Sequence record: SRR22947725_1805
Reading direction: 5' to 3' (one strand)
Length of the DNA: 64,000 nt
Positions 14,886 through 59,190 of the stretch are shown here, piece by piece. Every line of letters starts with the position of its first letter. Within the stretch, counting starts at the first letter, position 1. Below the pieces are notes generated by a model, which made no database searches, was not told where the DNA came from, and worked only from the letters and a program-made list of their open reading frames with translations. The position numbers were made by a program, and so were the translations under genes.

Positions 14886-14953
14886 GATACCCGTCCTTAG
14901 CCTTCCGGGGGAGAAACTCTCAATAACTAGCTGACACTGGTAATTTGTTACTC

Positions 14954-14987
14954 TGGTCTAGAGTGTAGTCTAATTGGTACGTACCAA
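14954..14987. promoter_or_regulatory. probable HutC/DasR-type GntR operators in the divergent promoter
   Basis: Perfect palindrome TTGGTACGTACCAA (14974-14987) and partial site TGGTCTAGA (14954-14962), similar to the dre TGGTCTAGACCA core. Confidence 0.7.
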
Positions 14988-15027
14988 AAATCACAGGTAC
15001 CCCTGTGGCATTAAAATTGGAGGAAAA

Positions 15028-16386: not shown

Positions 16387-16419
16387 GGTCCAGCACCTCT
16401 CGAAGACAGCATTATGGAA

Positions 16420-16451
16420 AGGTGGGCACCCCATACGTGGGGTGCCCACCT
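16420..16451 (+). terminator. 14-bp stem-loop after the SBP gene (partial terminator or mRNA stabiliser)
   Basis: AGGTGGGCACCCCA-TACG-TGGGGTGCCCACCT perfect inverted repeat, no U-tail. Confidence 0.7.
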
Positions 16452-16472
16452 CTGTAAGAAGGGAGATGAGAG

Positions 16473-18166: not shown

Positions 18167-18171
18167 GTCAC

Positions 18172-20813: not shown

Positions 20814-22232
20814 TTACTTTTTTGACGAGCTCCGTGTGGCGGATTCCGAATCATTCAGGACTGCAGGATCAAAAACTTTGCCCGGATTGAGAATTCCATG
20901 GGGATCAAAAAGCTTTTTGATACTCCACTGCAAGTCCCACAGTGGTTGGCCAATTTCGGCCATCATCCACTGTCTCTTGAGGAGCCCAACACCGTGCTCA
21001 CCGGTGAGCGTTCCGCCCAGAGCGACGGCCCGACGGAAGAGCGCATCGGCGGCATCCCAAATGTGAGGGGGAACGTCATCTCCGGAGTAAATGAAGTTGG
21101 GGTGAATGTTCCCATCTCCGGCATGAGCAACAGTGGGTATCTGGACATCGTATTCTTCTTCGATGCGCCGAATCTCACTAAACATCTCTCCCAAGCGGGA
21201 TCGAGGGACTGCGATGTCTTCGATGAGGACTTGGCCCACGGCCTCCATCGCAGGATGCATCGCCCGTCGGAACTGAATAAGGTCCTCACGGTCCTGACCA
21301 ACCTCCACCTCGAGTCCACATTCCCTCCAGATGGCGGCGATCGCCTCTGCTTCATCTTGTGCCGCTGCGCCATCAGTTTGGGCAATGAGTTGCGCCGAAT
21401 CCGTCGCAATGGCGGAGCGGCCCAAGTAATTCGCGACATGACCCACTGAGGGGCCATCCATGAGTTCCATAATTGCAGGCTGGCGCCCTCTGGTGATTGT
21501 TTCTTGCACCGACAGCGTCGCTATATCGATGTCACGAGCCGTTCCGCTAATAGTCCACACGGGATGGGGGTCTACCGGTTTGAGGGCGACTCTCGCCTCG
21601 GTAATGACTGCCAAGGTTCCCTCGCTCCCGACCATCAAGGAGGTGAGGTCGTATCCTGTGACGCCCTTCACGGTCTTGTGGCCCAGGGTGAGGATCTCTC
21701 CACCGGGTAGGACGACCGTGAGGTCGAGAACTGCTTCGCGGGTCACCCCGTATTTCACGCAGAGCAGGCCACCCGCGTTGGTTGCAATATTTCCTCCCAC
21801 GGTTGACCAGTGCCTGCTCGCGGGATCCGGTGCAAACCAGAGGCCGAGTTTTTTGGAAGCGTTGTTGAGGTCCAGATTGATGACACCAGCCTCAACGACG
21901 GCCCAACGGTCCTCGCGAGAGATCTCGATAATCCGATTCATGCTGGCAAGTGAGAGAACAATTTCGCCGGGACTTCCGATGGCTCCACCGGCCAGGCCAC
22001 TGCCACCACCTCGAGTGACGACAGGAGTCTTTGCCTCGTGGGCAATGCGGAGGACGTGTGCGACATCGTCGGTACTGTGAGCTTCCACAACACAGAGGGG
22101 AGGTCCGTGGCTGACCTGACCAGATTTATCAGCCTGCGCCTCAGCGAGTCGCGCAGGGTCAACGATGACGCGCTCCCCCAAAACCTCACGAAGGAGCGTA
22201 AGAACATCGAGTGCGCCCGTTATGGTTGTCAT
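20814..22232 (-). CDS. FAD-linked 2-hydroxyacid oxidase/dehydrogenase (GlcD/D-lactate dehydrogenase family)
   Basis: RGGGSGLAGG, PDPAS, TVGGNIATNAGG, GSEGTL, HAGDGNIH, GEHGVG. Confidence 0.9.
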   Translation of the reverse strand: MTTITGALDVLTLLREVLGERVIVDPARLAEAQADKSGQVSHGPPLCVVEAHSTDDVAHVLRIAHEAKTPVVTRGGGSGLAGGAIGSPGEIVLSLASMNRIIEISREDRWAVVEAGVINLDLNNASKKLGLWFAPDPASRHWSTVGGNIATNAGGLLCVKYGVTREAVLDLTVVLPGGEILTLGHKTVKGVTGYDLTSLMVGSEGTLAVITEARVALKPVDPHPVWTISGTARDIDIATLSVQETITRGRQPAIMELMDGPSVGHVANYLGRSAIATDSAQLIAQTDGAAAQDEAEAIAAIWRECGLEVEVGQDREDLIQFRRAMHPAMEAVGQVLIEDIAVPRSRLGEMFSEIRRIEEEYDVQIPTVAHAGDGNIHPNFIYSGDDVPPHIWDAADALFRRAVALGGTLTGEHGVGLLKRQWMMAEIGQPLWDLQWSIKKLFDPHGILNPGKVFDPAVLNDSESATRSSSKK

Positions 22233-22249: not shown

Positions 22250-23389
22250 CTAGTGTCCGCCAGAGCTGGCAACGTGGAACTGGGCGACTACGTTTTCGTC
22301 GACGTCGACACCGAGTCCCGGAGCTGTGGGAACATGCGCATATCCGTCAATGACGGGCTGCTCGGTGCTGACCAAGCTTTGTGACAGGGGGTTATCGGCG
22401 GTTGACCATTCCTGAATTCTCTCGCCGGCAAGGATGGCATTCAGGTGCAACGACGCGGCCTTCAGAATTCCAGACTTCCAGGCGTGCGGGACCACCCGAA
22501 CGCCGTGGCGTTCGGCCACCTCCGCAATCTTGACCATCTCGGAAATTCCTCCGCATCGCGCAATGTCGGGTTGCCAAATGTCGAGGGCTTGTGCCCGAGC
22601 GAGCTCCCCAAACTCCCATCGAGTGACGTTTTGTTCTCCGGCAGCAATGGGAACGATCTTCTTCGCTGTCAGGGCAGAGTATGCATCGATCTCGTCGGGG
22701 AAGAAGGGCTCCTCCAGCCACTTGTAGTCAAGCTCTGCCAGGGCGGAGGCAATGTAGGCGGCATCCTCGACGTTGTGTCCGTAGCCGTAGCCAGCGTCGA
22801 GCATGAGTTCCATCTCTGTCCCCGCCTCGTCACGGGCCGCGTGGATGAGGCGCAGGTCTAATTCACGGCTCTCACCGATGGGCCCCCAGCCCAACTTGAG
22901 GGCACTAAACCCAGCCTCCTTGCTCTCCGCAACTGTCTGCCTGACAAGCTTCTCAGTTCGCTCCATGAGACGAGAGGCGTATGTTCGAATCTCTGTCTTG
23001 GGGTTGTCTCCCAGGAGTTGTGCAATCGGTTGACCCTGTGCTTTTCCAAAGATATCCCATAACGCCATGTCCACTCCACTGAGGGCGTGAATTCCTGCCC
23101 CTCGGCGTCCTGCGTAAATGGAGCCTTTGTAGAGGGAGTCCCACATGGTCTGCGGATCTACCAGGGTCTGACCGACCAAGAGTTCACGAAGACCGCTCGT
23201 GATGGAGTGAGACGGCGGAGCATCAATCACGGCTTTGCACACTTCGGGAGACGAATCCACTTCCCCCACTCCGACGAGGCCAGTGTCGGTCGTGATACGA
23301 ATCAGGAGACCATCTTGGCCACCGTCAGCGCGACTGGCGTCAACAGTTCCTTGACGGAGAATTATGGCTTCCACCTGGGAGATTTTCAT
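22250..23389 (-). CDS. mandelate racemase/muconate lactonizing family acid-sugar dehydratase
   Basis: SGVDMALWDIFGK, metal ligands MLDA / WLEEP / AGEQ, QPD, PHAW. Confidence 0.88.
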   Translation of the reverse strand: MKISQVEAIILRQGTVDASRADGGQDGLLIRITTDTGLVGVGEVDSSPEVCKAVIDAPPSHSITSGLRELLVGQTLVDPQTMWDSLYKGSIYAGRRGAGIHALSGVDMALWDIFGKAQGQPIAQLLGDNPKTEIRTYASRLMERTEKLVRQTVAESKEAGFSALKLGWGPIGESRELDLRLIHAARDEAGTEMELMLDAGYGYGHNVEDAAYIASALAELDYKWLEEPFFPDEIDAYSALTAKKIVPIAAGEQNVTRWEFGELARAQALDIWQPDIARCGGISEMVKIAEVAERHGVRVVPHAWKSGILKAASLHLNAILAGERIQEWSTADNPLSQSLVSTEQPVIDGYAHVPTAPGLGVDVDENVVAQFHVASSGGH

Positions 23390-23396
23390 GAATCTT

Positions 23397-24659
23397 CTAC
23401 CTTTCCTTGTTCCCTGAGTAGGGAAGTGTGCCCTGCGCCGAGAGTTCCAACAGTCGATTCCACTTGGCCGTTCGTTCTGACCTCATAGTCGATCCCACCT
23501 TAATTTGACCGGCACCGGTGCCCACAGCAAGATCGACGAGCCAGTGTTCTTCGGTGTCTCCCGAGCGTGCCGACACGATGGTCCCCCATGTTGCGCTCTG
23601 GGCCAGTGCTACGGCCGACATGGTGTGCCACAGAGATCCCGCCTGGTTTGGCTTGATTAACACGCTGTTGGCCTCCTGAAGCTCGATGCCTGTGGCAAGT
23701 CGGGTCAACGATGTTGCGTAGCGGTCATCACCCACTACCTGCGATGTGCCGAGCAGTGGTGACGCAACAGACCAATCATCATCTTCGGCGAGCGGGTCTT
23801 CGATGCTTGCAATCGGCCAACGCTCGCACCATCGGGAAATTATCTCAATGATGTCGCGATTCGAGACGGTACTTCCTTCGAACTCATAGAGCGAACCCGA
23901 GGAGTGAAATTGATTTGCCGCGATGTCAAGAGCCAGCGTGGCATCCGTTCCCAACGCCAGGTCCGCTCTTTCGATTCCCTGGGCAACAATGGCCAGAGCG
24001 GCTTCGCTATCGGCGAAGCCTGCGGCGAGGCCGCCTTCGTCGGCGACGAGGGCGGTAGCAAACCCTTGGTCACGCATGACCTGACTGGCCCCGTGCCGCA
24101 CTCGCCAGACGTATTCAATGGCGTCCTCGAGTGTGGTGGCGGAGAGCGGGATTGTCAGGATGTCCTGGATGTCGACAGCCCGATCGGCGTGAGCTCCACC
24201 CGAGATGATATTCACCATCGGAACCGGGAGCGAGGGGGTGCTTCCCGTCCACCCCGCCATGACCTCCCACGGTGCAATCGCGCGAGCGTTGGCCACCGCG
24301 AGCCACGCGGCAATCGTGACGGCTGTGGTGACGTTCCCCCCCAGAATTGACCAGTTCGGGGTCGAATCAAGAGAGGTCAGAGCGTGGTGGAGCGACTCCG
24401 GGTTATCCGCATCAACCCCCACAATGACCTCCCGAATAAGAGGAATTGACCGCGCAATAACTCCTCGCACGGACAGGCCCGAATAGTGCGGAGAGTTGTC
24501 GCGAAGGAAGAGCGCTTCGTGCCCACCGGCGCTGGCGCCAGCGGGCGCGAGTGCGACACCGCGACCCCCGGTGTCGGTCACAATTCTCACAGCAACGGTG
24601 GGATTGCCCCGAGAATCGAGGGCTTCCCAGGAGAAGACGTCACGAATCAGGTGAGCCAT
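23397..24659 (-). CDS. divergent enolase (phosphopyruvate hydratase family paralog)
   Basis: DSRGNPTV, GAS, GGAHA, DEGG, SIEDP, VGDD, LIKPNQ, QIKVG, RSER; non-canonical DIQD and SARSGDTE. Confidence 0.88.
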   Translation of the reverse strand: MAHLIRDVFSWEALDSRGNPTVAVRIVTDTGGRGVALAPAGASAGGHEALFLRDNSPHYSGLSVRGVIARSIPLIREVIVGVDADNPESLHHALTSLDSTPNWSILGGNVTTAVTIAAWLAVANARAIAPWEVMAGWTGSTPSLPVPMVNIISGGAHADRAVDIQDILTIPLSATTLEDAIEYVWRVRHGASQVMRDQGFATALVADEGGLAAGFADSEAALAIVAQGIERADLALGTDATLALDIAANQFHSSGSLYEFEGSTVSNRDIIEIISRWCERWPIASIEDPLAEDDDWSVASPLLGTSQVVGDDRYATSLTRLATGIELQEANSVLIKPNQAGSLWHTMSAVALAQSATWGTIVSARSGDTEEHWLVDLAVGTGAGQIKVGSTMRSERTAKWNRLLELSAQGTLPYSGNKER

Positions 24660-25609
24660 TTTTCACACTCGTTCTCTAGGTTGGCGCCCTCAAGGAGGGC
24701 GCGGGCCATACCAGCGATGTGGTGTGTGCTGGATTCGTCGAGGTAGGACACCTGGGCTCTTCCGGCAACTCTGACCGCAAGGAAAAGTCCAATGTGTGCG
24801 CCCAAGCTAGCAGGGCGACTCGTCGGCGCCAGCGCATCCAGGAACCCTTGGCGAGCAAGGTGGAGGTAGGCGGCGGTGTCTGTGTCGGCTCGGTAGCGAA
24901 AAATCTTCAAGATCAGGTGGGCAAGCATCGATGCGGTGTCAAGAACCGGGTTACCGATGTGAGCGACCTCTGTGTCCACGACCCAGAGATTTCCCTCGGG
25001 AAGGCACAACACATTCTTGGGGGTGAAATCGCCGTGCACCACTGTTGCCTTGACGGAAAGTAGCTCGTGGACGAGTTCGTCGATTCTGGGGGAGTGCTCG
25101 GGCCATCGACGAGCAATGTCGAGATAGAACGGATTGATGCGCAAATCAATGAGGCGCGAGGTATCATCCAGAGCGGTGCCCAGGGCAGGCTGGTAATCAG
25201 CCAGGTGCCATGTGCCAAGAATGGTGCCGAGCAGCGAGGGCCAACCAGCATCGCACTCATCGGGGGTCTCCAACAGAACAGTTCTCAGGTCGGGACTGGG
25301 CTGAGGAGCCATCGGCAGAACCAGGCCATAGAGGTGCTCCACCACCGAGATGGGTCGGGGAACGTGATGCGGAGTGAGCCGGTTGAACCAGGTCAAACCT
25401 TCAGCCTCGGCGACAACGCGATCGGGATTTGCGGTCCATTCCTCGGCGACGTCTAGTTGTGCGAGCGCCTGCTTAATAATGAGACCCCCATCGGGTAGGT
25501 CGACAGCAAACGTGGCCGAGGAAACACCTCCCGTAATCCGACGGAAAGTTGCATCGTTTCTCGAGATTCCTGAGGCGTCAAGAATTTCGTGGGCGGACTG
25601 GAACTCCAC
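24647..25609 (-). CDS. APH/methylthioribose-kinase-fold phosphotransferase
   Basis: GGVSS loop, IIKQAL, Brenner motif HGDFTPKN, VDTE. Start uncertain (GTG 25609 with GAGG SD; alternatives 25636, 25645). Confidence 0.8.
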   Translation of the reverse strand: MEFQSAHEILDASGISRNDATFRRITGGVSSATFAVDLPDGGLIIKQALAQLDVAEEWTANPDRVVAEAEGLTWFNRLTPHHVPRPISVVEHLYGLVLPMAPQPSPDLRTVLLETPDECDAGWPSLLGTILGTWHLADYQPALGTALDDTSRLIDLRINPFYLDIARRWPEHSPRIDELVHELLSVKATVVHGDFTPKNVLCLPEGNLWVVDTEVAHIGNPVLDTASMLAHLILKIFRYRADTDTAAYLHLARQGFLDALAPTSRPASLGAHIGLFLAVRVAGRAQVSYLDESSTHHIAGMARALLEGANLENECEKWLT

Positions 25610-25616
25610 ATCAGCC

Positions 25617-26378
25617 TCAGTAGGTTGCTCGTCCACCGGAGGCATCAAAAACGAAGCCGGTGGTGAAACTGCAGGCCGGTGACGCCGCGAAGGCAATGAC
25701 TTCCGCAACCTCAGAGGGTTCGCCCATGCGGTGCATGGGGATTTTCCCGAGCATGTATTCGATTTGCTCAGGGGGCTCACCCTCGACCATGGGACTGCGG
25801 ATGACCGCGGGAGCGATGGCGTTCACCGAAATACCGTGCGTTGCATACTCTTTAGCGCACCCCTTCACAAAGCCGATCAGACCGGATTTCGCCATGTTGT
25901 AGGGCGCCATGTTGGGGTTTCCCTCTTTTCCTGCAATGGAAGCGACATGCACAATTCTTCCGTAGCCAGCCTCCACCATGTCGGGCAGGACCGCCATGGT
26001 GAGCAGGATTGCTCCCCTGAGATTGATCGAATAGGTCGCATCAAAATCAGCAATATCGAGCTGATGAGTTTTTCGATCGAGGGGCCCTGTGATTCCTGCA
26101 GAATTCACCAGTATTGCCGGGGTTCCCTGACTCCGGGCAAAATCGAGCAACGCAGACACATCGCTGGCTTGTGAAATATCGGTGACATGGTGAGACACCG
26201 AGACTCCCTCAGATTCCCATGCTGCGTGTCGTTCGAGGAGTTTTGCCTCGTCGCGATCGACGAGAACAACGTGGGCTCCGCGCAGCCCCAAGAGCTGAGC
26301 TGTTGCCGCTCCGATTCCGCTGGCGGCCCCCGTCACGAGGGCCAGCTGACCCTCGAGGGGTGAAGTGGGTGTTGTCAC
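25617..26378 (-). CDS. SDR oxidoreductase, resembles 2-keto-3-deoxy-sugar-acid 4-dehydrogenases (LRA5-like)
   Basis: TGAASGIG, NSAG, ASIAGKEGNP..YNMAK, C-terminal FDASGGRATY; GTG 26378 with GAGGAG SD. Confidence 0.82.
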   Translation of the reverse strand: MTTPTSPLEGQLALVTGAASGIGAATAQLLGLRGAHVVLVDRDEAKLLERHAAWESEGVSVSHHVTDISQASDVSALLDFARSQGTPAILVNSAGITGPLDRKTHQLDIADFDATYSINLRGAILLTMAVLPDMVEAGYGRIVHVASIAGKEGNPNMAPYNMAKSGLIGFVKGCAKEYATHGISVNAIAPAVIRSPMVEGEPPEQIEYMLGKIPMHRMGEPSEVAEVIAFAASPACSFTTGFVFDASGGRATY

Positions 26379-26388: not shown

Positions 26389-27249
26389 CTAATTGTGCGG
26401 ACCGGCTGTTGCCGATACCTGAGCGCGTTGGGTTCCCAAGCCCTCGATTGCTGTCTCCACTGTGTCACCGGGAGAGAGATAGCGGGGCGGTGTGAAGCCG
26501 AATCCGACTCCTTGGGGGGTTCCGGTGTTGATGACATCACCGGGGCTCAGCGCCATCACGTTGCTGATGTACCGAACAATCTCGCCGACGCCGAAAATCA
26601 TGTCTGACGTTGCGGAGTCCTGGCGGGATTCGCCATTGACCGAACAGGACATTCTCTTCTTGTTCGGATCCCATTCATCGGGGGTGAGAAGGTAGGGACC
26701 GAAGGGGTTAAACGAGGGAAAAGATTTGCCTTTGTCCCATTGCCCGCCGCGTTCAAGTTGCCAGTACCGCTCGCTGACATCCTGACTAATGGCGAACCCG
26801 GCGATGACCCCGAGCGCTTCCTTCTCGCTGGTGAGGTAGAGGGCGGGAGCCCCAATGACAATCGCGAGCTCCACCTCGTAGTCCGTTGCAGTGCTGCCCG
26901 GGGGAATGAGAATGTCATCGAAAGGCCCTTGCATCGTGTCGGCAGACTTCATAAACAAGACGGGTTCCTGAGGTATGTCGGCCCCTGACTCTCGCGCATG
27001 TTCTCGATAGTTCAAACCCACACAGATGATCTTTGTCGGGCGAGCAATCGGGCTGCCGATGCGTTCATCTGTCAGCTCGACCACAGGTCTTCCGGAGAGG
27101 TCCAGTGCTGTCAGTTTCTCGAGCGCGCCCGCTCCCAGAGTGTCGCGGGACAATTCAGCGACAACGTCATCGACGTAGATGGCGCTGGATTCAGTGGGCA
27201 TGATCGCGAGGCGTTCGTGCCCCACCTCACCTATCCGCGCAATCCTCAT
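26389..27249 (-). CDS. fumarylacetoacetate hydrolase family protein (2,4-diketo-acid hydrolase, LRA6-like)
   Basis: KIICVGLNY, DYEVEL, QDVSER, GQWDKGK, GDVINTGTP. Confidence 0.88.
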   Translation of the reverse strand: MRIARIGEVGHERLAIMPTESSAIYVDDVVAELSRDTLGAGALEKLTALDLSGRPVVELTDERIGSPIARPTKIICVGLNYREHARESGADIPQEPVLFMKSADTMQGPFDDILIPPGSTATDYEVELAIVIGAPALYLTSEKEALGVIAGFAISQDVSERYWQLERGGQWDKGKSFPSFNPFGPYLLTPDEWDPNKKRMSCSVNGESRQDSATSDMIFGVGEIVRYISNVMALSPGDVINTGTPQGVGFGFTPPRYLSPGDTVETAIEGLGTQRAQVSATAGPHN

Positions 27250-28415
27250 GAGACGTAATTCTTCACGTCTTGCCGCTTTTCCCAACCCTCGTTGTAGAGA
27301 GCTAACCGGCCTCCAGTGCGGGGGTGCTCCAGTGCGACAGCTTCATTGAGCTCGATCCCCAACCCGGGTTTCATGGGTTTTGCGAACGCTCCTGTTTTTT
27401 CGTCGACGCGAGGTGCGTCGGACACCAGATCGTGCACCCACGGGTCAGCGAAGTCGTTGAAATGCTCCAACACCTTGACATTCGGAGCGGCGATGCAGCA
27501 GTGCAAAGCGGCCGCCGTTCCAATGGGGCCACACACGTTGTGCGGCGCAAGTTGCACGTTGTAGGCATCGGTCCAGCCAACGAGGCGCATGAACCCGGTA
27601 ATTCCGCCATGGTGGGTGACGTCAATTTGCACGATGTCGACCAGATTTTCCTCGAGGAACGGGCGGAGCTCCGCAGCGTGATGGATTCGCTCACCCAAGG
27701 CAATTGGGTACGTGGTCGCGGCCCTCACCTGTCGCAAACCTCCGAGGTCTAGTGGCAGAGTCGGTTCCTCGAGCCAGCCAGGTTCGATCTGTTCGGCATC
27801 GGCGACAACTCTCGCTGCTGCTGCGCCGGTGAAGCGCCCATGCATTTCGACGAAGATTTCGATGTCGGGGCCAACGGCATCTCGGACAGCGTGGAGGATG
27901 TCTTGGGACGTGCGGTGCTCTTGGCGACTGAGAGCGCTTGCTGAAGCACCAAAGGGATCGATTTTGAGCCCTCGATATCCTCTCTCCACGACTTTGTTGG
28001 CCATCTCCCCGATGAGCTTGGGGTCCCGATCGCCTTGATACCACCCGTTGGCGTAGGCCGGTACTTCGTCACGGAAGGCACCTCCAAGGAGCTTCCAAAT
28101 TGGTTGACCCAGAGCTTTGCCCATGACATCCCAGCAGGCGATGTCAAAAGCGGCGAGCGCGGATTGGCCCACCTCGCCGGGGAGCCCATATTCGGCCACT
28201 TGAATGTTCCAGGCCAGCCGGGACACATCGAAGGGGTCCATTCCGATGACATAGCGCTCTGCCAATTCGTTGATTGCAGCGACGAGAGTGTCGGTCTTGT
28301 TCACCATCCGCACCTCGCCAAGTCCGGTGATTCCCTCGTCGGTCTGAACTTGAACGATGGTGAGTTCGCGCCATGGCGCACCGACCACTAGTGTTCGGAA
28401 GCCCGTGATTTTCAT
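27246..28415 (-). CDS. mandelate racemase family acid-sugar dehydratase (galactonate/gluconate dehydratase-like)
   Basis: DIACWDVMGK, YANGWY, KIDPF, EMHG, WLEEP, LGER, APHN. Confidence 0.87.
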   Translation of the reverse strand: MKITGFRTLVVGAPWRELTIVQVQTDEGITGLGEVRMVNKTDTLVAAINELAERYVIGMDPFDVSRLAWNIQVAEYGLPGEVGQSALAAFDIACWDVMGKALGQPIWKLLGGAFRDEVPAYANGWYQGDRDPKLIGEMANKVVERGYRGLKIDPFGASASALSRQEHRTSQDILHAVRDAVGPDIEIFVEMHGRFTGAAAARVVADAEQIEPGWLEEPTLPLDLGGLRQVRAATTYPIALGERIHHAAELRPFLEENLVDIVQIDVTHHGGITGFMRLVGWTDAYNVQLAPHNVCGPIGTAAALHCCIAAPNVKVLEHFNDFADPWVHDLVSDAPRVDEKTGAFAKPMKPGLGIELNEAVALEHPRTGGRLALYNEGWEKRQDVKNYVS

Positions 28416-29260
28416 TGTTGTCCTTTCAGTGCTGGGGTGGGTTGTGGGGATTGGTCACGCGCGGTGTTGTCCGGAGCTGTTGTACCTTTGGCCAAATAGG
28501 TTTTCAAATCCTTTTCCGATTGCTGAAGATGTTCACGCATCGCGTTCATGGCTTTCCTGGCGTCTCGCGCTTCAATGAACTGGAAGATTTTGAGGTGCGC
28601 CCGGTAGGGATCGAGAGCGGAGCCACCCCGAGAGGCGTTTCCTTCGAAAGAGGCATCAAATGCCCGCAGTAGGGAATCTTCGAGTGCTTCGAGAACATGT
28701 GCCAACATGCGATTCCCCGAGGACAGGGCGATAGCTTCGTGAAAAGATACGTCCGCTCTTTGGAATTCAGCCCGAGCGATGGTTTTCTGCTCATCTGAGC
28801 TGGTGGCATCTATGAGGATGTCGGCAGATTCCTTCATCGCCCGCAGGCATGCCTCCATCGCCGTCAGACCGGCCCTGGTGACTTTTCGCGCCGCAAGTCC
28901 CACGCTTTGAACTTCCAGAGCGCGGCGTACTTCGACGAGTTCCAAGAGAGCACTCGGGTCACGTCGCACATAGGACACAAAGATGCTCGAAATGACCTCA
29001 CTCGAGGGTTCGGTCACAACAGCTTTGCGACCCTGCCTGATTTCCGCGAGACCGCGCCCCGCGAGGACTTTCAGGGCCTCTCGAACGGTGAGCCGACTCA
29101 CCCCAAACTGTTCAGCAAGAGCCGCTTCAGCAGGAAGACTGGCTCCAATGGGGAGCGATTCGACGACCGTTTGCAACACTGAAACAAGCTGAAATGTTGA
29201 TTCGCCGACAGAGCGCACGGGAGTGGAGTGACGCCTTAAAGCGCCCAAACTTCTGGTCAC
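28412..29260 (-). CDS. FadR/GntR family regulator
   Basis: LPAEAALAEQFGVSRLTVREAL and FCD domain (EVRRALE, DVSFH, SGN, H). Start uncertain. Confidence 0.9.
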   Translation of the reverse strand: MTRSLGALRRHSTPVRSVGESTFQLVSVLQTVVESLPIGASLPAEAALAEQFGVSRLTVREALKVLAGRGLAEIRQGRKAVVTEPSSEVISSIFVSYVRRDPSALLELVEVRRALEVQSVGLAARKVTRAGLTAMEACLRAMKESADILIDATSSDEQKTIARAEFQRADVSFHEAIALSSGNRMLAHVLEALEDSLLRAFDASFEGNASRGGSALDPYRAHLKIFQFIEARDARKAMNAMREHLQQSEKDLKTYLAKGTTAPDNTARDQSPQPTPALKGQQ

Positions 29261-29435: not shown

Positions 29436-29486
29436 AGCGTCTACTGAAGGTCCACACCGGATCTTCGTATTGTGAAAGGAAGGTTC

Positions 29487-30557
29487 ATGATAACTCTTGC
29501 TACCAAAAAGAGGTTAACAATCGGCATCTCAGCGGCGCTGCTGTTGGCGACGGTTGGATGTACAACCGCCACCACCGCGGAAGACACGAGTGCTGCTGGT
29601 GGCGACTCAGATGCAACTGAAGCGGTTGCGCCCTCTGGCGAAACTGGTTGGTGCAGCGGCGTCAAGATTGCTGCATTCCCCGGTGGCCCACAGGGTGGTG
29701 TCTTCGCCAACAACGTGTACAACGGTTTCCAGCAGGCTGAGGCTGACCTGGGAGCTGACGTAACGTACTACTTCTCTGACTGGGACGCTGCAAAGCTCGT
29801 CTCTCAGGGTAAGGAAGCTCTCTCAACCGACATTGACGGCATCGCTACCTATGGTTTCGGTGGCGAGGATGCCATGGGGCAGCTGGCTGATGAGGCCTTC
29901 GAAAAGGGCATTATCTTCACGACCCTGAACACCGAACTTCCTGACACCTTTGCTTCTTACCAGGCTGAGGGAAGTGGCTTCGTAGGAGCAATCAACTACA
30001 ACGCCGGATACGATCTCGCCGCCAAGACTGTCCAGGAAGCTGGTCTGGTTTCAGGTGACGAGGTTCTCGTCTGGGGTCTCGTGTCCCTGCCAGGTCGTGG
30101 CGACAGGACTCAGGGTGTTATTGATGCCTTCGAAGAGGCTGGCCTCACCGTGGTCTATCAAGAAATTGATCAGGCCACTAACGCTGACCCCCAGGCCGGT
30201 ACGCCGACCTTTGTTGGTTTGCTCGGAGCCAACCCGGGAATCAAGGCAGTTGTCACCGACCACGGTGGACTCACTGCAACTCTTGAGACCTACCTGACCG
30301 CTGCTGGTAAGGGACCGGATGACGTTTACGGAGCAGGCTTCGATGTCTCTCCTGCAACCGTCACCGCGATCGAATCCGGCTACACGGACCTGGTCATTGA
30401 CCAGCAGCCGTTCCTTCAGGGTTACATTCCTATCCTGAACATTTGCTTGACTGAAAAGTTTGGTTTCTCCGGACTCTTCATCAACACTGGTGCTGGATTC
30501 GTAACCCAGGACAACGTGGCAGCTGTTGCACCGTTGGCTGCGGTTGAAATCCGCTAA
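29487..30557 (+). CDS. monosaccharide ABC transporter substrate-binding lipoprotein (CUT2/RbsB-like)
   Basis: Lipobox TVGC, AGFD, IDQQPFLQGY; AAGGAAGG SD. Confidence 0.88.
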   Translation: MITLATKKRLTIGISAALLLATVGCTTATTAEDTSAAGGDSDATEAVAPSGETGWCSGVKIAAFPGGPQGGVFANNVYNGFQQAEADLGADVTYYFSDWDAAKLVSQGKEALSTDIDGIATYGFGGEDAMGQLADEAFEKGIIFTTLNTELPDTFASYQAEGSGFVGAINYNAGYDLAAKTVQEAGLVSGDEVLVWGLVSLPGRGDRTQGVIDAFEEAGLTVVYQEIDQATNADPQAGTPTFVGLLGANPGIKAVVTDHGGLTATLETYLTAAGKGPDDVYGAGFDVSPATVTAIESGYTDLVIDQQPFLQGYIPILNICLTEKFGFSGLFINTGAGFVTQDNVAAVAPLAAVEIR

Positions 30558-30583
30558 GCACCCTTAGCAAATACCATCGAGAT

Positions 30584-30616
30584 GCTGGGGGTCACCCGTT
30601 ACGGGTGGCCCCTAGC
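30584..30616 (+). terminator. stem-loop after the SBP gene (mRNA stabiliser or partial terminator)
   Basis: GCTGGGGGTCACCCG-TTA-CGGGTGGCCCCTAGC, 15-bp stem with two G-U pairs. Confidence 0.65.
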
Positions 30617-30640
30617 TTCCCCACGTCAGGAGGAACTGTA

Positions 30641-31420
30641 ATGAGCGACACCGCGGTCGTGACACCAGTAATTGAACTCAAGAACGTTAGTAAGACTTTT
30701 GGAGAAGTTCAGTCCATCAAGGACATCGATTTCCACATCAATGCAGGCGAGATTGTCGGGCTTCTTGGCGACAACGGTGCCGGGAAATCTACTCTCATCA
30801 AAACCATCATGGGATTCCACACTCCTGATCCCGGTGGAGAGATTTACTTTAAGGGCGAGCTTCTGAAGGACTGGAACGTCCATAAAGCCCGCGATATTGG
30901 TATCGAGACCGTGTACCAGGAACGCGCACTGTGTGATCAGCAGTCAATTTGGCGCAACATGTTTATGGGCCGCGAGCGTCGAGGCAAGCTCGGTTTGTTG
31001 GACGTTGCGGGGATGCGAAAAGAAGCAGCCCGCCTCATGAGTGAGCACATGGGGTTCACCTCGAATGCTGTGCACCCCGAAAACACCGTCATGACGATGT
31101 CCGGCGGTGAGAAACAGGGTGTTGCGATCGCAAGGGCTTTGTATTTCCACGCAGAGGTCGTCATCTTGGACGAACCAACCATGGGTTTGTCACTCTCGGA
31201 GACCAAGAAGACCCTGAACTTTATCCGCTCCATCAAGGAGGCTGGAAAGAGTGCGATATTCATCGATCACAACATTTTCCATGTCTATCCCGTGGTGGAC
31301 CGCATCATTATTCTCGACCGTGGCTCCATCGCCGCAAGTCTTGTCAAGGATGAAATTCCGATTGAAAATCTGATGGAAGGCCTGCAACATTTGGCCCGTA
31401 CAGGAAGCTGGAGCGCATAA
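30641..31420 (+). CDS. sugar ABC transporter ATP-binding protein (single NBD)
   Basis: GDNGAGKS, MSGGE, ILDEPT, DHN; AGGAGG SD. Confidence 0.93.
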   Translation: MSDTAVVTPVIELKNVSKTFGEVQSIKDIDFHINAGEIVGLLGDNGAGKSTLIKTIMGFHTPDPGGEIYFKGELLKDWNVHKARDIGIETVYQERALCDQQSIWRNMFMGRERRGKLGLLDVAGMRKEAARLMSEHMGFTSNAVHPENTVMTMSGGEKQGVAIARALYFHAEVVILDEPTMGLSLSETKKTLNFIRSIKEAGKSAIFIDHNIFHVYPVVDRIIILDRGSIAASLVKDEIPIENLMEGLQHLARTGSWSA

Positions 31421-31421
31421 C

Positions 31422-32468
31422 GTGGCAATTGATGAAACCTACCTGGCCCAAGAACCCTCGGGAGACTCTCGGGCTGACGCAGAAGAAGTAAAGGCCGACC
31501 GCTCGAAGCCGCCATCGGTGTGGCGCAGATTTGGGCTCCAAATCGGCATCGGAGCCGTCGGAGCACTCATTTGGTTGCTGTTCCTGATTTCGGCGCCGGT
31601 GGTCTTCTTGAAGCCCTCCATCTACCTCGCGTTCGCCTCCACGACGCCTCTGTTCCTCATCATCGCCCTGGCCTTGACCTTCGTGATCATCACCGGGGAG
31701 ATAGACCTCTCCTTCCCCGCGGTGATGGCCTTATCGATGGTGTCGTTCACCTGGGTATTCCAAAACGGTGGATTCTTGGGAATGGCATTCCTTGCCGCCA
31801 TTGTGACAGGAGCCCTAGCGGGAGCCTTCAACGGCTACCTTGTGGGCAAAATGGGCATACCTGCGGTGGTGATCACCATTGGGACGAGCTTCCTGTTCAG
31901 AGGGTTAGAACTCGCGGCAATGTCCGGGAGTGGTTTCCCCCTCACCGACCCCGCAATGGACCCACTCAAGCAGGTGTTAGTGGGCAGGTGGTTCTTCGGA
32001 ATCCCGATGCAGTTCATTTGGGTTGTGATTTTCGCTATCCTCCTGTGGGCTTTGCTCAACCGCACCAGGTTCGGTTCGCACGTGTTCCTCATTGGTGACA
32101 ATGCGACATCGGCCAAGCTGATGGGTGTCAACGTGATGTGGACCAAAGTCGGCGTCTTCATGCTCGTCGGTGCGATGGCAGCCTTCGCGGGTATGGTCGC
32201 ATCATTTGAGGTGAGCTACTTCTGGCCCACACTGGGAGAAGGAACTCTGCTCAACACCATTGCCGCGGTATTCGTGGGAGGGACAAGTCCCTTCGGCGGG
32301 GCTGGAAGCATCTTCGGGACGCTGATTGGCGGGCTCATCATCGGTGCATTGAACGCGGGAATTGTGTCGGCAGGTATTAATGCCTTCTGGACCCAGGCTG
32401 TGTTCGGCTTCGTGATTGTGGTCTCCCTGATTATGCAGGTCGTCATTCAGAAGCGCGTCCGCAACTAA
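31422..32468 (+). CDS. sugar ABC transporter permease (RbsC family)
   Basis: GEIDLS, RTRFG..IGDN, IAAVFVGGTS. Confidence 0.92.
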   Translation: MAIDETYLAQEPSGDSRADAEEVKADRSKPPSVWRRFGLQIGIGAVGALIWLLFLISAPVVFLKPSIYLAFASTTPLFLIIALALTFVIITGEIDLSFPAVMALSMVSFTWVFQNGGFLGMAFLAAIVTGALAGAFNGYLVGKMGIPAVVITIGTSFLFRGLELAAMSGSGFPLTDPAMDPLKQVLVGRWFFGIPMQFIWVVIFAILLWALLNRTRFGSHVFLIGDNATSAKLMGVNVMWTKVGVFMLVGAMAAFAGMVASFEVSYFWPTLGEGTLLNTIAAVFVGGTSPFGGAGSIFGTLIGGLIIGALNAGIVSAGINAFWTQAVFGFVIVVSLIMQVVIQKRVRN

Positions 32469-32485
32469 GCAGTGCAGATTCGAGA

Positions 32486-33388
32486 GTGAATAACGTGACC
32501 GTTAACAGCTCTCTGGGAGGTGCGGGAATCTTTGATTCCCGCACCTGCACCCTAGGGGAGGGCCCGATCTGGCACCCAGAATCGGGCCGGGTGCTCTGGG
32601 TGGATATTCTCCAGAATGCGGTCCACTGGCGCCGCCTTGGCGACGGGACTTCTGGCTCATTCTCGATGCCCTCGAATGTCGGAGCTTTTCTTCCTCGAGA
32701 CGATGGAACATGGCTCGCTCTCCTGCAGGACGGAGCCTATTCCTTCGACGAGACTCGATCATCCTGTGACCTCATTGCGCTATTCCCTCACCAGCTGCCG
32801 CCGGAAAACGGTGTTGCTCGGATGAGAGCTAACGACGCTGCGGTGTCCCCCTGGGGCCAGGTGGTCTGCGGAACGATGCCCTACGACGTCGAGGCTTTCC
32901 CGCGAACGGCTCAGCTCTATCACCTGGAGGGCACGAACCTGACAACCCTGGTGGATGGCATGACAATCAGTAACGGCATTGGCTGGTCACCGGATGACTC
33001 CCAGATGTATTACGTGGATACGCCCACCGGACGCATCGATGTTTTCGATTGCTCGCCATCTCTCGAGCTCTCCCACCGTCGCGTTTTTGCCACCGTTGAC
33101 GATAGCTTGGGCTGGCCCGATGGCTTAGCCGTCGATCGAGATGGGTTTGTCTGGTTGGCGTTATGGGGTGGGAGCCGGGTTCAGAGGTTCGCCCCGGACG
33201 GATCACTCGCGGGATATGTGGAGGTCCCCTGCACTAACGTCACCAGCTGTGCTTTTGTGGGCGATGACCTCTCCCGACTCGTCATCACCACCTCGCAGCT
33301 TGACCACGAAGGTGATGAGGCCGCCGGCAAGACCTACATTTTTGATACGAAGACCGCGGGCCTCCCCCTCGTCGCGGCGGGGGTATGA
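32486..33388 (+). CDS. SMP-30/gluconolactonase family sugar lactonase
   Basis: LGEGPIW, RAND, ISNGIGWSPD, PDGLAVD. Confidence 0.92.
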   Translation: MNNVTVNSSLGGAGIFDSRTCTLGEGPIWHPESGRVLWVDILQNAVHWRRLGDGTSGSFSMPSNVGAFLPRDDGTWLALLQDGAYSFDETRSSCDLIALFPHQLPPENGVARMRANDAAVSPWGQVVCGTMPYDVEAFPRTAQLYHLEGTNLTTLVDGMTISNGIGWSPDDSQMYYVDTPTGRIDVFDCSPSLELSHRRVFATVDDSLGWPDGLAVDRDGFVWLALWGGSRVQRFAPDGSLAGYVEVPCTNVTSCAFVGDDLSRLVITTSQLDHEGDEAAGKTYIFDTKTAGLPLVAAGV

Positions 33389-34305
33389 CGATGACTGCTC
33401 CCACGGTCACCGGAGTCTGTCCTGTCCTCTCCGCAGCCTTCGATGACGACGGCGCAGTTGATCTCTCCGGTTTTGCATCCCTGTGTCGTTATGTAGTGGA
33501 TTCCGGGGTTAAGTCCTTGATGGTGTTTGGCGTTGCGACAGAGAATTCGAAGCTGAACGATCAGGAAAGAGACGCGATGCTCGAGACTCTGGTCCGAGAG
33601 CGCGGGAGCGCGCCGGTGGCGATTGTGGCGACCGTGGCTGACCATTCCACTGAATTGGCTATGGCCAGGGCACACGCGTGGGTTGAAGCAGGTGCCGATG
33701 CCATCAATATCCTGCCCTCCTACTTTCTTGCCCCACCGCAACCGGAGGTGCTCCGCCACCTGTCCTCGATCCTGGACTCCGTATCAGTACCCGTGATCAT
33801 CCAGTCCTTGCCCTCGGGGGGTAACGAGGTGTCGCTGCGCGACATCGTCGCGCTGCACGCAGAACACCCCAACCTCACGCAGGTGAAAGTGGAGAACACC
33901 CCCGCAGCGGACCTCATCCGAGATGTCACCCGATTCTCTGCGGGACAGGTGTCCTCACTCGTGGGCTGGGGAGGACTCGAATGGGAAGAAGCGGCTCAGG
34001 CAGGTGCACTCGGCGTTCAACCCGGCTGCTCCTTTATCGAGTTGTATCTCGATGCCCAGGCCTACCTGGAATCTGACGATCACGAGGGTTTTGCCCGCGC
34101 CTTCAGCCCCCTTCGCCCTGCGCTGACATCCTGGATGCGCCATCCCGAGGTGCTGATTGCGATCGAGAAGCACATTCTGAGGGAACGAGGAATCATTTCC
34201 TCACCGAGAACCCGTCACCCCTCCGCCACGCTGAGTGCTGATGATTATGCCTTTGCGGATCAGATTCTGTCTCTTCTTGCAAGCAGGGGCGTGACAGTTG
34301 ACTGA
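33385..34305 (+). CDS. DHDPS/NAL family lyase (keto-deoxy-sugar-acid aldolase or dehydratase)
   Basis: FDDDGAVD, FGVATE, Schiff-base Lys in VKVE; IIQ where DapA has the catalytic Tyr. Confidence 0.82.
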   Translation: MTMTAPTVTGVCPVLSAAFDDDGAVDLSGFASLCRYVVDSGVKSLMVFGVATENSKLNDQERDAMLETLVRERGSAPVAIVATVADHSTELAMARAHAWVEAGADAINILPSYFLAPPQPEVLRHLSSILDSVSVPVIIQSLPSGGNEVSLRDIVALHAEHPNLTQVKVENTPAADLIRDVTRFSAGQVSSLVGWGGLEWEEAAQAGALGVQPGCSFIELYLDAQAYLESDDHEGFARAFSPLRPALTSWMRHPEVLIAIEKHILRERGIISSPRTRHPSATLSADDYAFADQILSLLASRGVTVD

Positions 34306-35260
34306 GCACAGCAACAGAGACTCAAGAGACCTTGTTGTGCTGGGCGAAGCGCTGGTGGGTCTTGTGCCGGAGGAGCACGGTGTCGTTCGCCGCAGTGAAA
34401 CTCTCCGACGATTTACCGTGGGTGCGGAGGTCAACGTCGCTGTCGCAGCGTCACGGCTTGGACATCGAGTGAGCTGGATTGGCCGAGTAGGGGAGGACCT
34501 TTCGGGAGAGGCAATTCTCGATGACCTGCGGCGCGAAGGGGTCCTCATCGACCATGTGCGCCGTGACACGAGCGCCCCCACTGGTCTCCTGCTCAGAGAA
34601 AAGTCTCCTTTGGGTGCAACACGTGTTTCCTACGTCAGAAAGGGCAGCGCGGGTTCGCTCGTCAGCGACGAGGACATCGACGAGAAGTTCGTTGCCCTTC
34701 ACAAGATGGCGCATGTGTCCGGAGTCACACCGGCTCTTAGCCCCTCAGCCCTTCGCGCAGCTGACACATTCTTGCGGGTCGCGCGAGACGCAGGGGTAAC
34801 CACTGTTTTTGATCTGAACTACCGGTCCAAGCTCTGGTCTGCCGACGATGCTGCGCCCGCCCTGGCTGGGCTTGCTAACAAAGCCGACATTGTGATGGGG
34901 GGAGCTGCCGAATGGACACTAGCTTTCGGTAGCGACGACCTGAGAAAAATCTCCCTCGCCTCAGCATCAGTTCTGGTGCGCACCGATGGGCCCCACCCGG
35001 TAACGGCGCTCGTGGAGGGACAGCTGATCTCACAGGACACGATGACGACGCACGTCGTCGATGTCGTGGGTGCGGGAGACGCGTTCGTCGGGGGAGTTTT
35101 ATCAGCACGATTGGCCGGAGCCGATTGGCCAAGCGCCCTGCGACAAGGAACCTACTGCGGTGCGCGAGTGGTCTCCAGTTTCGGTGACTGGACGAATCTT
35201 CCCTGGGGGACACACGGTCTGGTGACGGGTCCACTCGATGAGCAGGAAGTCCTCCGATGA
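34298..35260 (+). CDS. kdgK: PfkB family 2-keto-3-deoxygluconate kinase-like sugar kinase
   Basis: GAEVNVA, FDLNYRSKLW, DVVGAGDAF; adjacent to eda. Confidence 0.8.
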   Translation: MTEHSNRDSRDLVVLGEALVGLVPEEHGVVRRSETLRRFTVGAEVNVAVAASRLGHRVSWIGRVGEDLSGEAILDDLRREGVLIDHVRRDTSAPTGLLLREKSPLGATRVSYVRKGSAGSLVSDEDIDEKFVALHKMAHVSGVTPALSPSALRAADTFLRVARDAGVTTVFDLNYRSKLWSADDAAPALAGLANKADIVMGGAAEWTLAFGSDDLRKISLASASVLVRTDGPHPVTALVEGQLISQDTMTTHVVDVVGAGDAFVGGVLSARLAGADWPSALRQGTYCGARVVSSFGDWTNLPWGTHGLVTGPLDEQEVLR

Positions 35261-35898
35261 CCCTCCAGACTGTTATGGATCAGATTGCTCGCTCTCGAGT
35301 GGTCGCGATTCTTCGCCTCCAGAACTCCCACGAAGCTCACGAACTGGGTAAGGCCATCATTTCTGGTGGACTCCCCGTTGTCGAGGTGTCCTTGAACACC
35401 CCCGGAGCTGTAGACGCGATCGAGCGACTGGCGAAGGACACCGAGGGGATCATCGGAGCGGGCACAGTTCTGGACGTGTCCGATGTGGCTCGGGTGGCCA
35501 AGGCAGGAGCTCACTTTATGGTGACGCCCAATCTCAATCCTGATGTGGTGAAAGCCGGACTGGACGCGGGTCTGATGGTTGGCCCTGGCGTTTTCACGGC
35601 AACAGAATGTCATCAGGCCATCACCCTGGGAGCTCACGCTCTTAAGTTGTTTCCCGCCGCGCAGGCGGGAATCTCGGGGTTTAGGGCGCTGCGGGATCCT
35701 TTTCCTGATGCAGTCTGGTTGCCCACCGGAGGAGTATCGGAGTCCACCATGAGTGACTGGCTCAACGCTGGGGCGCTTGCGGTAGGAATTGGCTCGGCTC
35801 TGACCAGCGGGGATGCGGACCATGCGATGCGGACTGCCCGGCGAATTGCCGACATCGTCGAGAGCCTTGAGTCGCCCGGGCACGAGGAGGTCAGGTAG
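35257..35898 (+). CDS. eda: KDPG/KHG (2-keto-3-deoxy-6-phospho-aldonate) aldolase
   Basis: VAILR, EVSL, IGAGTVL, TATE, LKLFPA, PTGGV. Confidence 0.9.
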   Translation: MTLQTVMDQIARSRVVAILRLQNSHEAHELGKAIISGGLPVVEVSLNTPGAVDAIERLAKDTEGIIGAGTVLDVSDVARVAKAGAHFMVTPNLNPDVVKAGLDAGLMVGPGVFTATECHQAITLGAHALKLFPAAQAGISGFRALRDPFPDAVWLPTGGVSESTMSDWLNAGALAVGIGSALTSGDADHAMRTARRIADIVESLESPGHEEVR

Positions 35899-37062
35899 AT
35901 GCACATCACGAAAGTCAGTGCGATGCTGGTCAACGCACATCTCAGGAACTGGGTATTTGTGAGAGTGGACACGAGTGAACCTGGGCTCTATGGGTTGGGC
36001 GAAGCCACACTGGAGTTTCAGTCCCGAGCAGTAGCGGCACGAGTTGACGAGTTCGAAGAATTACTGCTGAACAAGGACCCGCGGGATATCGCCATGCTCT
36101 GGGAAGCAATGTTCCGGTACCCCTTCTTCCGCGGGGGCGCCGTCACAATGTCGGCAATCAGCGGAATTGACCAGGCTTTGCATGACATCCAGGCGAAAGC
36201 TCTCGGTGTTCCCCTGTGGCGTGTGCTCGGTGGGCTTGCTCGCACCAGGGTGCAAATGTATGACCACGTCGGGGGCGGAGATTCGTCTGCCGTTTATGGT
36301 GATCTTGATGAGGGCATAGCCGAACGAGTCTCCGCGAGTAAAGCGGAGGGGTTCAGCGCAATCAAAATTCTCGCGGTGCCGCAGACCCGCGCCATTGATG
36401 GCATAGGGGCTCTCCGTGAAGCGGAGAGAATTATGCACTCGGCGCGCGAGGCGGGTGGTGACGACATGGACATCATGGTCGATTTTCACGGTCGAACCAC
36501 GTCTGCGATGGCCATCCAATATGCGAAAGTCCTCGAACCGTTTAACCCGTTCTTCATTGAGGAAGTAGTTGGTCCAGAAATCCCGGCCCGGGAAATGGCG
36601 CGCGTGGCGCAGTCCACCGTTATTCCTGTCGCCGCGGGGGAGCGCCTCTTCCATCGCAAAGAGTTCCTCGCTTTGCTAGAAGTTGGGGCCATTAGTGTGG
36701 CGCAGCCGGATGTGTGCCATGCCGGAGGAATAACAGAGACGATGAGGATCGGGGCCCTTGCTGGCGCCTTCGGGGCCCACCTTGCTCCGCACAATCCCTT
36801 GGGACCGATTGCCACGATGGTGAATATTCATCTCGGCTTTGCTCTGCCCAACTTTATGATCCAGGAAGTAATGCGCAACGATGTTCCCTGGCGATACGAC
36901 GTCGTCAAGGGGTCGGTCCCGATCATTGACGGTTTCGTCTCGCCACCCCAGGCACCAGGTATTGGGGTAGAAATTGATGAGAAGGCCGCGGCTCTCCACC
37001 CGTATGAGGCAAGTCAGCCGGTTCAATGGACGCATGCGGATGGGAGTGTAGCGGAATGGTGA
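35899..37062 (+). CDS. dgoD: galactonate dehydratase-like enolase-superfamily enzyme
   Basis: GLGEATLE, SGIDQALHDI, DFHGR, FIEE, AGER, QPD, APHNPLGP, IQE. Confidence 0.78.
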   Translation: MHITKVSAMLVNAHLRNWVFVRVDTSEPGLYGLGEATLEFQSRAVAARVDEFEELLLNKDPRDIAMLWEAMFRYPFFRGGAVTMSAISGIDQALHDIQAKALGVPLWRVLGGLARTRVQMYDHVGGGDSSAVYGDLDEGIAERVSASKAEGFSAIKILAVPQTRAIDGIGALREAERIMHSAREAGGDDMDIMVDFHGRTTSAMAIQYAKVLEPFNPFFIEEVVGPEIPAREMARVAQSTVIPVAAGERLFHRKEFLALLEVGAISVAQPDVCHAGGITETMRIGALAGAFGAHLAPHNPLGPIATMVNIHLGFALPNFMIQEVMRNDVPWRYDVVKGSVPIIDGFVSPPQAPGIGVEIDEKAAALHPYEASQPVQWTHADGSVAEW

Positions 37063-37850: not shown

Positions 37851-37874
37851 TTTCCCCATCAGAAGGAGAGAATC

Positions 37875-38807: not shown

Positions 38808-38812
38808 TCCGC

Positions 38813-40291: not shown

Positions 40292-40331
40292 TTGCTAAAA
40301 CTCCTCGGGTAGTGTATATATCATATTATGA
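40292..40331 (+). promoter_or_regulatory. AT-rich promoter with palindrome overlapping the first start codon (candidate FadR operator)
   Basis: TTGCTA at 40292, TATATATCAT at 40315-40324, perfect palindrome TCATA-T-TATGA at 40321-40331; no SD. Confidence 0.5.
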
Positions 40332-59177: not shown

Positions 59178-59190
59178 CGTTGGCCTCTCA

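Follow-up and report, generated by a model that had tools for sequence, protein, structure and literature searches.

Overlapping genes for a kinase and a variant enolase

The stretch of DNA that was analysed, 64,000 nt of sequence record SRR22947725_1805 and referred to here as the window, carries two overlapping genes, one coding for a small-molecule kinase of the APH fold and the other for an enolase with an altered active site. Open reading frames (ORFs) of the (-) strand were called, and Pfam and NCBIfam/TIGRFAM models were run on the proteins. The kinase gene (24647..25609, (-) strand) codes for 320 aa from a GTG codon at 25609, and the enolase gene (23397..24659, (-) strand) codes for 420 aa. 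As can be read directly from the sequence, the stop codon of the kinase (24649-24647) and the ATG start of the enolase (24659) lie within a shared 13 nt (24647..24659, (-) strand), an arrangement typical of translational coupling. Both genes belong to a series of eight abutting or overlapping (-) strand ORFs which together form a sugar-acid operon. When related loci are included in the comparison, the two genes emerge as a module that is conserved as a unit, coupled in translation and frequently fused.

The kinase matches a single Pfam family, APH (PF01636), with 46.5 bits against a cut-off of 23.2, and the motif of its catalytic loop is HGDFTPKN. In an alignment of 16 kinase sequences the motifs GGVS, VVK, HGDFTPKN and DxE are invariant, and residues G27, G28, K46, H192, G193, D194, N199, D212 and E214 are identical throughout. 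The score, the Gly-rich loop, the lysine, the HGDxxxxN loop and the DxE metal site together identify the protein as a member of the APH phosphotransferases. An initial annotation of this DNA had described an uncharacterised kinase with an HGDxxPKN motif, which agrees with the loop sequence and with the Pfam match, and had chosen the start at 25609. That start is probable, as a GAGG ribosome-binding site lies five bases and the stop codon of the preceding SDR gene eight bases 5' of the GTG; the ORF itself is open to 25780, and this longer version (24647-25780) runs into the SDR gene.

Within the APH family the closest solved and curated relatives are methylthioribose kinases (MtnK), but the similarity is marginal. 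The nearest solved structures (PDB 2olc and 2pyw) were found with E-values of 4e-5 and 1e-3, and the curated model TIGR01767 gives 39 bits against a cut-off of 275, covering only residues 72-149, so that by this model the protein is not a methylthioribose kinase, an identity which the initial annotation had named as one that would speak against its own proposal. A role in methionine salvage was rejected, as no neighbours of this kind are present in the window. Homology to the glycerate kinase families PF02595 and PF05161 was not detected in the kinase by Pfam, and a structure search of the ESM Atlas returned generic phosphotransferase clusters alone. We also considered a role in the synthesis of F420 2-phospholactate and rejected it because lactate would offer an enolase no leaving group.

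The enolase resembles the glycolytic enzyme (EC 4.2.1.11) in its two-domain fold, with 97.8 bits for Enolase_N (PF03952) and 218.4 bits for Enolase_C (PF00113), and its score of 361 bits with TIGR01060 exceeds the cut-off of 300 for enolases. When it is aligned with the solved enolase 7ckp, DIQD is found in place of DIQE and SARSGDTE in place of SHRSGETE, while the remaining motifs (LDIA, SIEDP, VGDD, LIKPNQ, ADEGG and GQIK) are kept; the initial annotation had noticed this same combination of an altered active site with otherwise conserved motifs. In what we take to be the numbering of yeast enolase, the metal ligands Asp246, Glu295 and Asp320 and the catalytic residues Lys345, Glu211 and Lys396 are retained, as are Arg374/Ser375, His159 and the Ser39 loop, and three residues are substituted, Glu168 by Asp, His373 by Ala and Thr397 by Val. 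Going by the literature on the yeast enzyme, Glu168 and His373 presumably form the site of the C3 hydroxyl and water and serve the step in which the hydroxyl leaves; mutation of either residue strongly reduces the activity of yeast enolase. The changed residues make the surroundings of Glu211 less polar, and the pocket gains in hydrophobicity instead of cationic character.

These differences from the glycolytic enzyme run through an entire clade. Asp and Ala occupy positions 168 and 373 in all 20 kinase-linked enolases compared (that of the window included), as against Glu and His in all six housekeeping copies from the same genomes. Ala373 is present in each of 137 clade members, Asp168 in 136 and Val397 in 134. 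Among the 120 best database homologues of the window's enolase, which are 48–98% identical to it, both changes were recognised by pattern in 114, and His or Glu in none. A maximum-likelihood tree of 37 rows has a single branch (support 100/99) that parts 31 variant from six housekeeping sequences. Each of the five carrier genomes searched has a canonical enolase elsewhere, scoring 644–678 bits compared with 336–567 bits for the kinase-linked copy; the 64-kb window itself contains no second enolase. A separate housekeeping gene, for which the initial annotation had suggested looking, is therefore present in related carrier genomes, and the phylogeny that it had likewise suggested places the variant type in a clade of its own. 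The variant enolase is a separate clade that has been remodelled beside the leaving group. In their source records, the clade members that we saw are named "enolase" or "phosphopyruvate hydratase". Terrabacter terrigena is among the organisms that source records name for carriers of the pair.

Conservation and fusion of the pair

Relatives of the kinase were sought in one genome per species, which resulted in 32 loci (the genome tallies given here include twelve genomes flagged as unpublished). At 23 of these an enolase match follows immediately 3' of the kinase on the same strand. The carriers are metagenome-assembled genomes (MAGs) whose labels give Actinomycetota (with Acidimicrobiia among them), Planctomycetota, Verrucomicrobiota and Acidobacteriota. 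When metagenomes were scanned with the alignment of 16 kinase sequences, at least 586 relatives were obtained, of which 80 loci were examined. Seventy of these have at least 400 bp of sequence downstream of the kinase, and in 66 the enolase is adjacent; of the other four, two have it at a distance of about 4.2 kb and two are on contigs that stop after 850 or 1589 bp with no enolase. At the 92 loci with both genes, the estimated start of the enolase lies between -41 and +18 nt from the stop of the kinase in 89 cases, with a median of -13, which is the very spacing seen in the window.

The association holds in the reverse direction as well. The enolase of the window was searched against 401 Actinomycetota genomes and the 30 best loci were examined. 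All four variant enolases among them carry the kinase directly upstream, whereas a kinase match was found beside none of the other 26, which comprise 25 canonical enolases (with SHRSG and QE) and one without a motif match; a genome flagged as unpublished contributes one of these 26 loci.

The two proteins also occur as a single polypeptide. The kinase profile collects 1217 clusters at E-values up to 1e-30. When proteins of 409–1304 residues were searched with the kinase part of a 745-aa match as the query, 120 long relatives were listed, and 40 of these are fusions of an APH and an enolase domain, including one of 763 aa named Polaribacter staleyi (P0366) and one from a Gaiellaceae MAG. In the 31 full-length kinase-enolase fusions, the position of His373 is occupied by Ala in 30 and by Gly in one, and the QD motif was recognised by pattern in 29. 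As the kinase-enolase arrangement has been found again in about 90 independent loci, it is far beyond chance, and the co-conservation of this kinase with the SARS-type enolase, on which the initial annotation had made its proposal depend, is upheld by both directions of search and by the frequent fusion. We argue that the recurrent fusion, together with the conserved overlap of stop and start, points to consecutive enzymatic steps.

Other fusion partners of the kinase were seen among the 120 long relatives listed. Seven carry a D-2-hydroxyacid dehydrogenase (P0281-P0284, P0339, P0354, P0361), eight an FGGY sugar kinase (among the nine ids P0286, P0288-P0293, P0295 and P0301), and three a domain of the 3-hydroxyacyl-CoA-dehydrogenase type (P0273-P0275). 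A PF09370 domain, which is like a phosphoenolpyruvate (PEP) hydrolase, and a MobA-like nucleotidyltransferase occur twice each (P0303 and P0331; P0135 and P0342), and PfkB once (P0205). At one high-GC metagenome locus (L131:3890-4984), a gene for a DDE-type transposase lies about 650 bp 3' of the kinase-enolase pair.

Gene neighbourhoods

In the window, all eight genes of the operon are on the (-) strand. The first codes for a GntR/FCD regulator (28412..29260; Pfam and curated models) and is followed by those for an MR/MLE acid-sugar dehydratase (27246..28415), a FAH-family hydrolase (26389..27219, ORF open to 27285) and an SDR dehydrogenase (25617..26378, ORF open to 26540), the latter being a candidate 2-keto-3-deoxy-acid 4-dehydrogenase. 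Behind the kinase and the enolase lie the genes for a second MR/MLE acid-sugar dehydratase (22250..23389) and, in last position, for a GlcD-like FAD-linked D-2-hydroxyacid oxidase/dehydrogenase (20814..22232; Pfam, and TIGR00387 with 350 bits against a cut-off of 568). The two dehydratases and the SDR protein were assigned from Pfam, curated models and solved relatives, and these solved relatives did not identify the sugar substrate. The hydrolase is nearest to L-2,4-diketo-3-deoxyrhamnonate hydrolase, its closest solved relative (PDB 8gsr, 213 bits), while its top NCBIfam match, NF053535, remains with 270 bits under the cut-off of 500. The domain matches of the neighbouring genes agree with the sugar-acid operon that had been described in the initial annotation.

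A divergent sugar-acid cluster on the (+) strand (29472..40264; Pfam and curated models) contains genes for an ABC sugar transporter, an SMP-30 lactonase, a DHDPS-type aldolase, a PfkB kinase, a KDPG aldolase (35257-35898), a third MR/MLE dehydratase, a further SDR protein, a U32-like TIM-barrel protein (37875-38807) and an aldehyde dehydrogenase.

Several other contexts became apparent when 215 neighbour proteins were run through Pfam. The order dehydratase, FAH, SDR, kinase, enolase is common to the window and its close relatives (L075-L077). The operon found in Verrucomicrobiota and Acidobacteriota consists of genes for a weakly class-I-aldolase-like protein, an aldehyde dehydrogenase, the kinase, the enolase, an isomerase of the lyxose/mannose type and a PfkB kinase, with a sugar MFS transporter in the vicinity. 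Loci of the Acidimicrobiia type have a D-isomer-specific 2-hydroxyacid dehydrogenase directly 5' of the kinase, often preceded by a FAH protein, and this kinase-adjacent 2-Hacid_dh protein is nearest to phosphoglycerate and glycerate dehydrogenases. A U32-like protein and a short SDR protein, followed by the kinase, are found at no fewer than 30 of the 80 metagenome loci (GC 0.39–0.48), with an L-arabinonate-dehydratase-like IlvD protein, a FAH protein and aldehyde dehydrogenases close by. There is no conserved enzyme 3' of the enolase across the neighbourhoods annotated, and the product therefore probably enters central metabolism directly.

The U32-like protein (307–310 aa; 37875-38807 on the (+) strand of the window, and L115:5268-6191) has a weak Peptidase_U32 match and is 59–63% identical between the window and the low-GC loci. 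Its predicted structure is a TIM barrel (pLDDT 79), for which class II aldolases are the top structural matches, with TM scores of about 0.5 that are too weak to indicate a function. In a further arrangement (L080 and L082, and the cut contigs L081 and L087), the kinase is found after a GlcD-like oxidase and a GlcF-like Fe-S (CCG) protein; the enolase of L080 and L082 is situated some 4.2 kb downstream, past an ABC transporter and beside an RraA-like aldolase/decarboxylase.

A proposed route from a hydroxy acid to phosphoenolpyruvate

Judging from the sequences, we consider it somewhat probable that the pair forms a two-step module of phosphorylation followed by elimination, which would convert a 2-hydroxy acid of three carbons, most likely glycerate (and D-glycerate rather than L-glycerate), to PEP. 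We favour this reading because the enolase paralog has retained the residues that bind the metals, the phosphate and the carboxylate and those that deprotonate C2, and because the neighbouring enzymes make carboxylic acids. Upstream enzymes would release a small 2-hydroxy carboxylic acid, in the window by the successive action of an acid-sugar dehydratase, the SDR protein and the FAH hydrolase, and elsewhere by that of an aldolase and an aldehyde dehydrogenase, or of a D-2-hydroxyacid dehydrogenase. The APH-fold kinase would then use ATP to phosphorylate the 2-hydroxyl of this acid. The enolase paralog would hold the resulting 2-phospho acid via two Mg2+, Arg374/Ser375 and Lys396, upon which Lys345 would take the proton from C2 and the group at C3 would be expelled, so yielding PEP, for which no further dedicated enzyme would be required. 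Glycerate is compatible with all three of these acid-forming contexts and is probably the likeliest acid.

The part of this scheme that precedes the kinase had been anticipated by the initial annotation, which proposed an SDR and FAH route to a C3 acid. Such a route is plausible for the enzymes of the window, where a hexonate would give glycerate: the hydrolase is nearest to 8gsr, and the available part of PMC11199699 describes that L-KDF dehydrogenase, from the fucose route, also oxidises L-KDGal (L-2-keto-3-deoxygalactonate) as well as D-KDGlu (D-2-keto-3-deoxygluconate). With pentonates, the SDR and FAH route leads to pyruvate and glycolate (PMC6336799, available part). The non-phosphorylative sugar-acid pathways known as Route III resemble the window, which has a dehydratase, a FAH and an SDR gene in a row, but in the available parts of these two papers they end with pyruvate and either lactate or glycolate, and no kinase-enolase pair is described there for the second product. 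The formation of lactate and glycerate from L-galactose is the subject of a 1979 JBC title (cited in the available part of PMC13406643), and the Luteolibacter pathway for L-glucose and L-galactose has different enzymes according to the available part of PMC12632266.

The proposed chemistry, from glycerate via 2-phosphoglycerate to PEP, is that of the established glycerate kinases (GlxK/GarK, PF02595; MOFRL, PF05161) in combination with enolase, and the pair likewise sits after an aldehyde dehydrogenase or after enzymes of the hydroxypyruvate reductase type. Glycerate kinase followed by enolase operates in the non-phosphorylative Entner-Doudoroff branch and in the serine cycle. The kinase described here differs in having the APH (protein-kinase-like) fold, which is unrelated to either family, and in coming with an enolase of its own. 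In the literature covered, which did not extend to most subscription journals, no description of this pair or of a cluster of a kinase with an enolase paralog was found; the pair is apparently uncharacterised so far.

Several points weigh against the proposed module. Ordinary D-2-phosphoglycerate as the intermediate would need no more than the housekeeping enolase, which was present in 5/5 genomes checked, and there would then be no explanation for the invariant loss of Glu168 and His373 across the clade. An enolase match is missing downstream of the kinase at nine of the 32 genome loci, of which two have contigs ending within 250 bp, one has a marginal kinase match and six have sequence there but no enolase, and the match is fragmented or partial at four of the 23 positive loci (L011, L012, L020, L027). 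Some contexts have no acid-forming enzyme beside the pair, such as AraA with an ABC transporter (L153) or an MR/MLE protein only (L083). Canonical glycerate kinases coexist with the pair in two of five carrier genomes, one of the GlxK type (G003) and one of the MOFRL type (G004); none was found in the other three, which are MAGs with completeness not established. At the MAG loci L011, L012 and L027 the enolase match is in two or three pieces, which may be due to frameshifts, pseudogenes or assembly errors.

Alternative explanations

There are four possible answers to the question posed by the remodelled site: a dedicated isozyme in which the changes are tolerated, L-2-phosphoglycerate as the substrate with reversed roles of the catalytic residues, a bulkier leaving group, or a longer dihydroxy acid. 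The initial annotation had put forward L-glycerate, but we consider the D configuration at C2 to be more likely. The dehydrogenase that is found adjacent to the kinase, and fused to it in seven of the 120 long relatives listed, belongs to the D-isomer-specific 2-hydroxyacid dehydrogenase family, the operon of the window contains a GlcD-type D-specific oxidase, and the enolase keeps an invariant Lys345 while His373 has been removed. We take Lys345 to be the base that removes the C2 proton of a D-substrate, and His373 to be on the opposite face. This evidence falls short of proof because the dehydrogenase need not produce the substrate of the kinase. L-Glycerate, which could arise from an L-hexonate via SDR and FAH or from L-glyceraldehyde, is thus an unlikely substrate; the kinase would convert it to L-2-phosphoglycerate, and the paralog would dehydrate this to PEP with the acid and base roles reversed. 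It would account for the need of a second, remodelled enolase next to a canonical one that cannot use L-2-phosphoglycerate, and Ala373 and Val397, which lower the polarity around Glu211, could suit Glu211 as the base. It would also be in keeping with the good acceptance of L-KDGal by L-KDF dehydrogenase (kcat/Km of 1480, vs 7900 for L-KDF; PMC11199699, available part). Neither an L-glycerate kinase nor an L-2-phosphoglycerate enolase was found in the literature covered; L-2-phosphoglycerate is obtainable for assays, according to the CpgD paper.

A bulkier leaving group would be present if the acid were 3-sulfolactate or another lactate substituted in this way at C3, which we regard as doubtful. 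The kinase would then form 2-phospho-3-sulfolactate, from which the paralog would eliminate sulfite to give PEP, a new route for the cleavage of a carbon-sulfur bond that would complete the breakdown of sulfoquinovose or cysteate. 3-Sulfolactate is a common C3 end product of sulfoquinovose breakdown. The three changed residues sit, by the roles that we assume for them, at the C3 substituent, where they would enlarge the pocket; the base Lys345 is kept, and (S)-sulfolactate derived from sulfoquinovose should be spatially similar to D-glycerate. The gene contexts parallel known sulfoglycolysis, either with isomerase, PfkB, aldolase and aldehyde dehydrogenase or with dehydrogenase, lactonase, dehydratase, aldolase and aldehyde dehydrogenase, and there is one locus with a transaldolase and two GFO/IDH/MocA proteins and one with a YihS-family isomerase. 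However, the pocket gains hydrophobicity rather than positive charge, the transporters found belong to types for neutral sugars (Sugar_tr MFS, ABC), and no sulfite exporter (TauE), GH31 sulfoquinovosidase or sulfite oxidase occurs among the 215 Pfam-annotated neighbour proteins or in the window. A sulfolactate kinase or a phosphosulfolactate lyase is not named in the literature covered. Tetronates, aldonates and other longer D-2,3-dihydroxy acids are quite unlikely substrates: the exchange of His373 for Ala, Glu168 for Asp and Thr397 for Val would provide room and a hydrophobic surface near C3 for the extra carbons while the other catalytic residues are kept, and the fusions of the kinase with FGGY, PfkB and 3-hydroxyacyl-CoA-dehydrogenase-type domains indicate varied sugar contexts, but cleavage by FAH of a diketo acid derived from a hexonate gives a C3 acid, so that a C4 acid would require a heptonate, and the product would be a homologue of PEP, for which no conserved downstream enzyme is available. 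It is, finally, highly improbable that the two genes are linked without sharing a metabolite, with the kinase acting for example on a sugar and the enolase being a regulated isozyme or a non-catalytic copy. This would fit with methylthioribose kinases as the nearest, if marginal, solved relatives (E-values of 4e-5 and 1e-3), yet the corresponding curated model falls far short of its cut-off (39 vs 275 bits), the recurrent fusion (40 of the 120 listed) and the conserved overlap argue for consecutive steps, and the enolase keeps all metal and catalytic residues bar the three signature positions.

Other genes in the window

Genes for a type III polyketide synthase, an ICMT-family methyltransferase, a FAD monooxygenase and a UbiA prenyltransferase form a small cluster at 5792-9221 on the (+) strand, with two genes for ABC exporters ahead of it on the other strand. 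The regions 12581-20049 and 53292-63992 hold two further clusters. One of them has genes of the amino-sugar/sialic-acid type, coding for NanE, a BadF/BcrA-type kinase, an ABC transporter, an amidohydrolase and a NagB-like protein, while the other is of the type found in inositol catabolism, with genes for a thiamine pyrophosphate (TPP) enzyme, GFO/IDH/MocA proteins, a Cgl0159-like aldolase, PfkB, IolB/KduI and a LacI regulator. Two GH88 genes are located at 40328-41359 and 45901-46968.

Implications

The enolase fold is usually regarded as having one job. Here, a large clade of enolases is altered at the leaving-group site and is wired, and often fused, to a kinase. As members of this clade are named enolase or phosphopyruvate hydratase, many such labels in the databases may give the wrong reaction. 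We know of no APH-fold kinase that acts on glycerate-type acids. If the substrate is glycerate, as in the module that we favour, the kinase would add a fourth class to the glycerate kinases, one unrelated to the others, and oxidative sugar routes would have an exit of their own to PEP, while with another acid as the substrate the pair would constitute a new pathway of phosphorylation followed by elimination. The pair is abundant in low-GC metagenome contigs (GC 0.39–0.48) and occurs in MAGs from Verrucomicrobiota, Acidobacteriota and Planctomycetota as well, and its function therefore bears on the use of sugars by common environmental bacteria.

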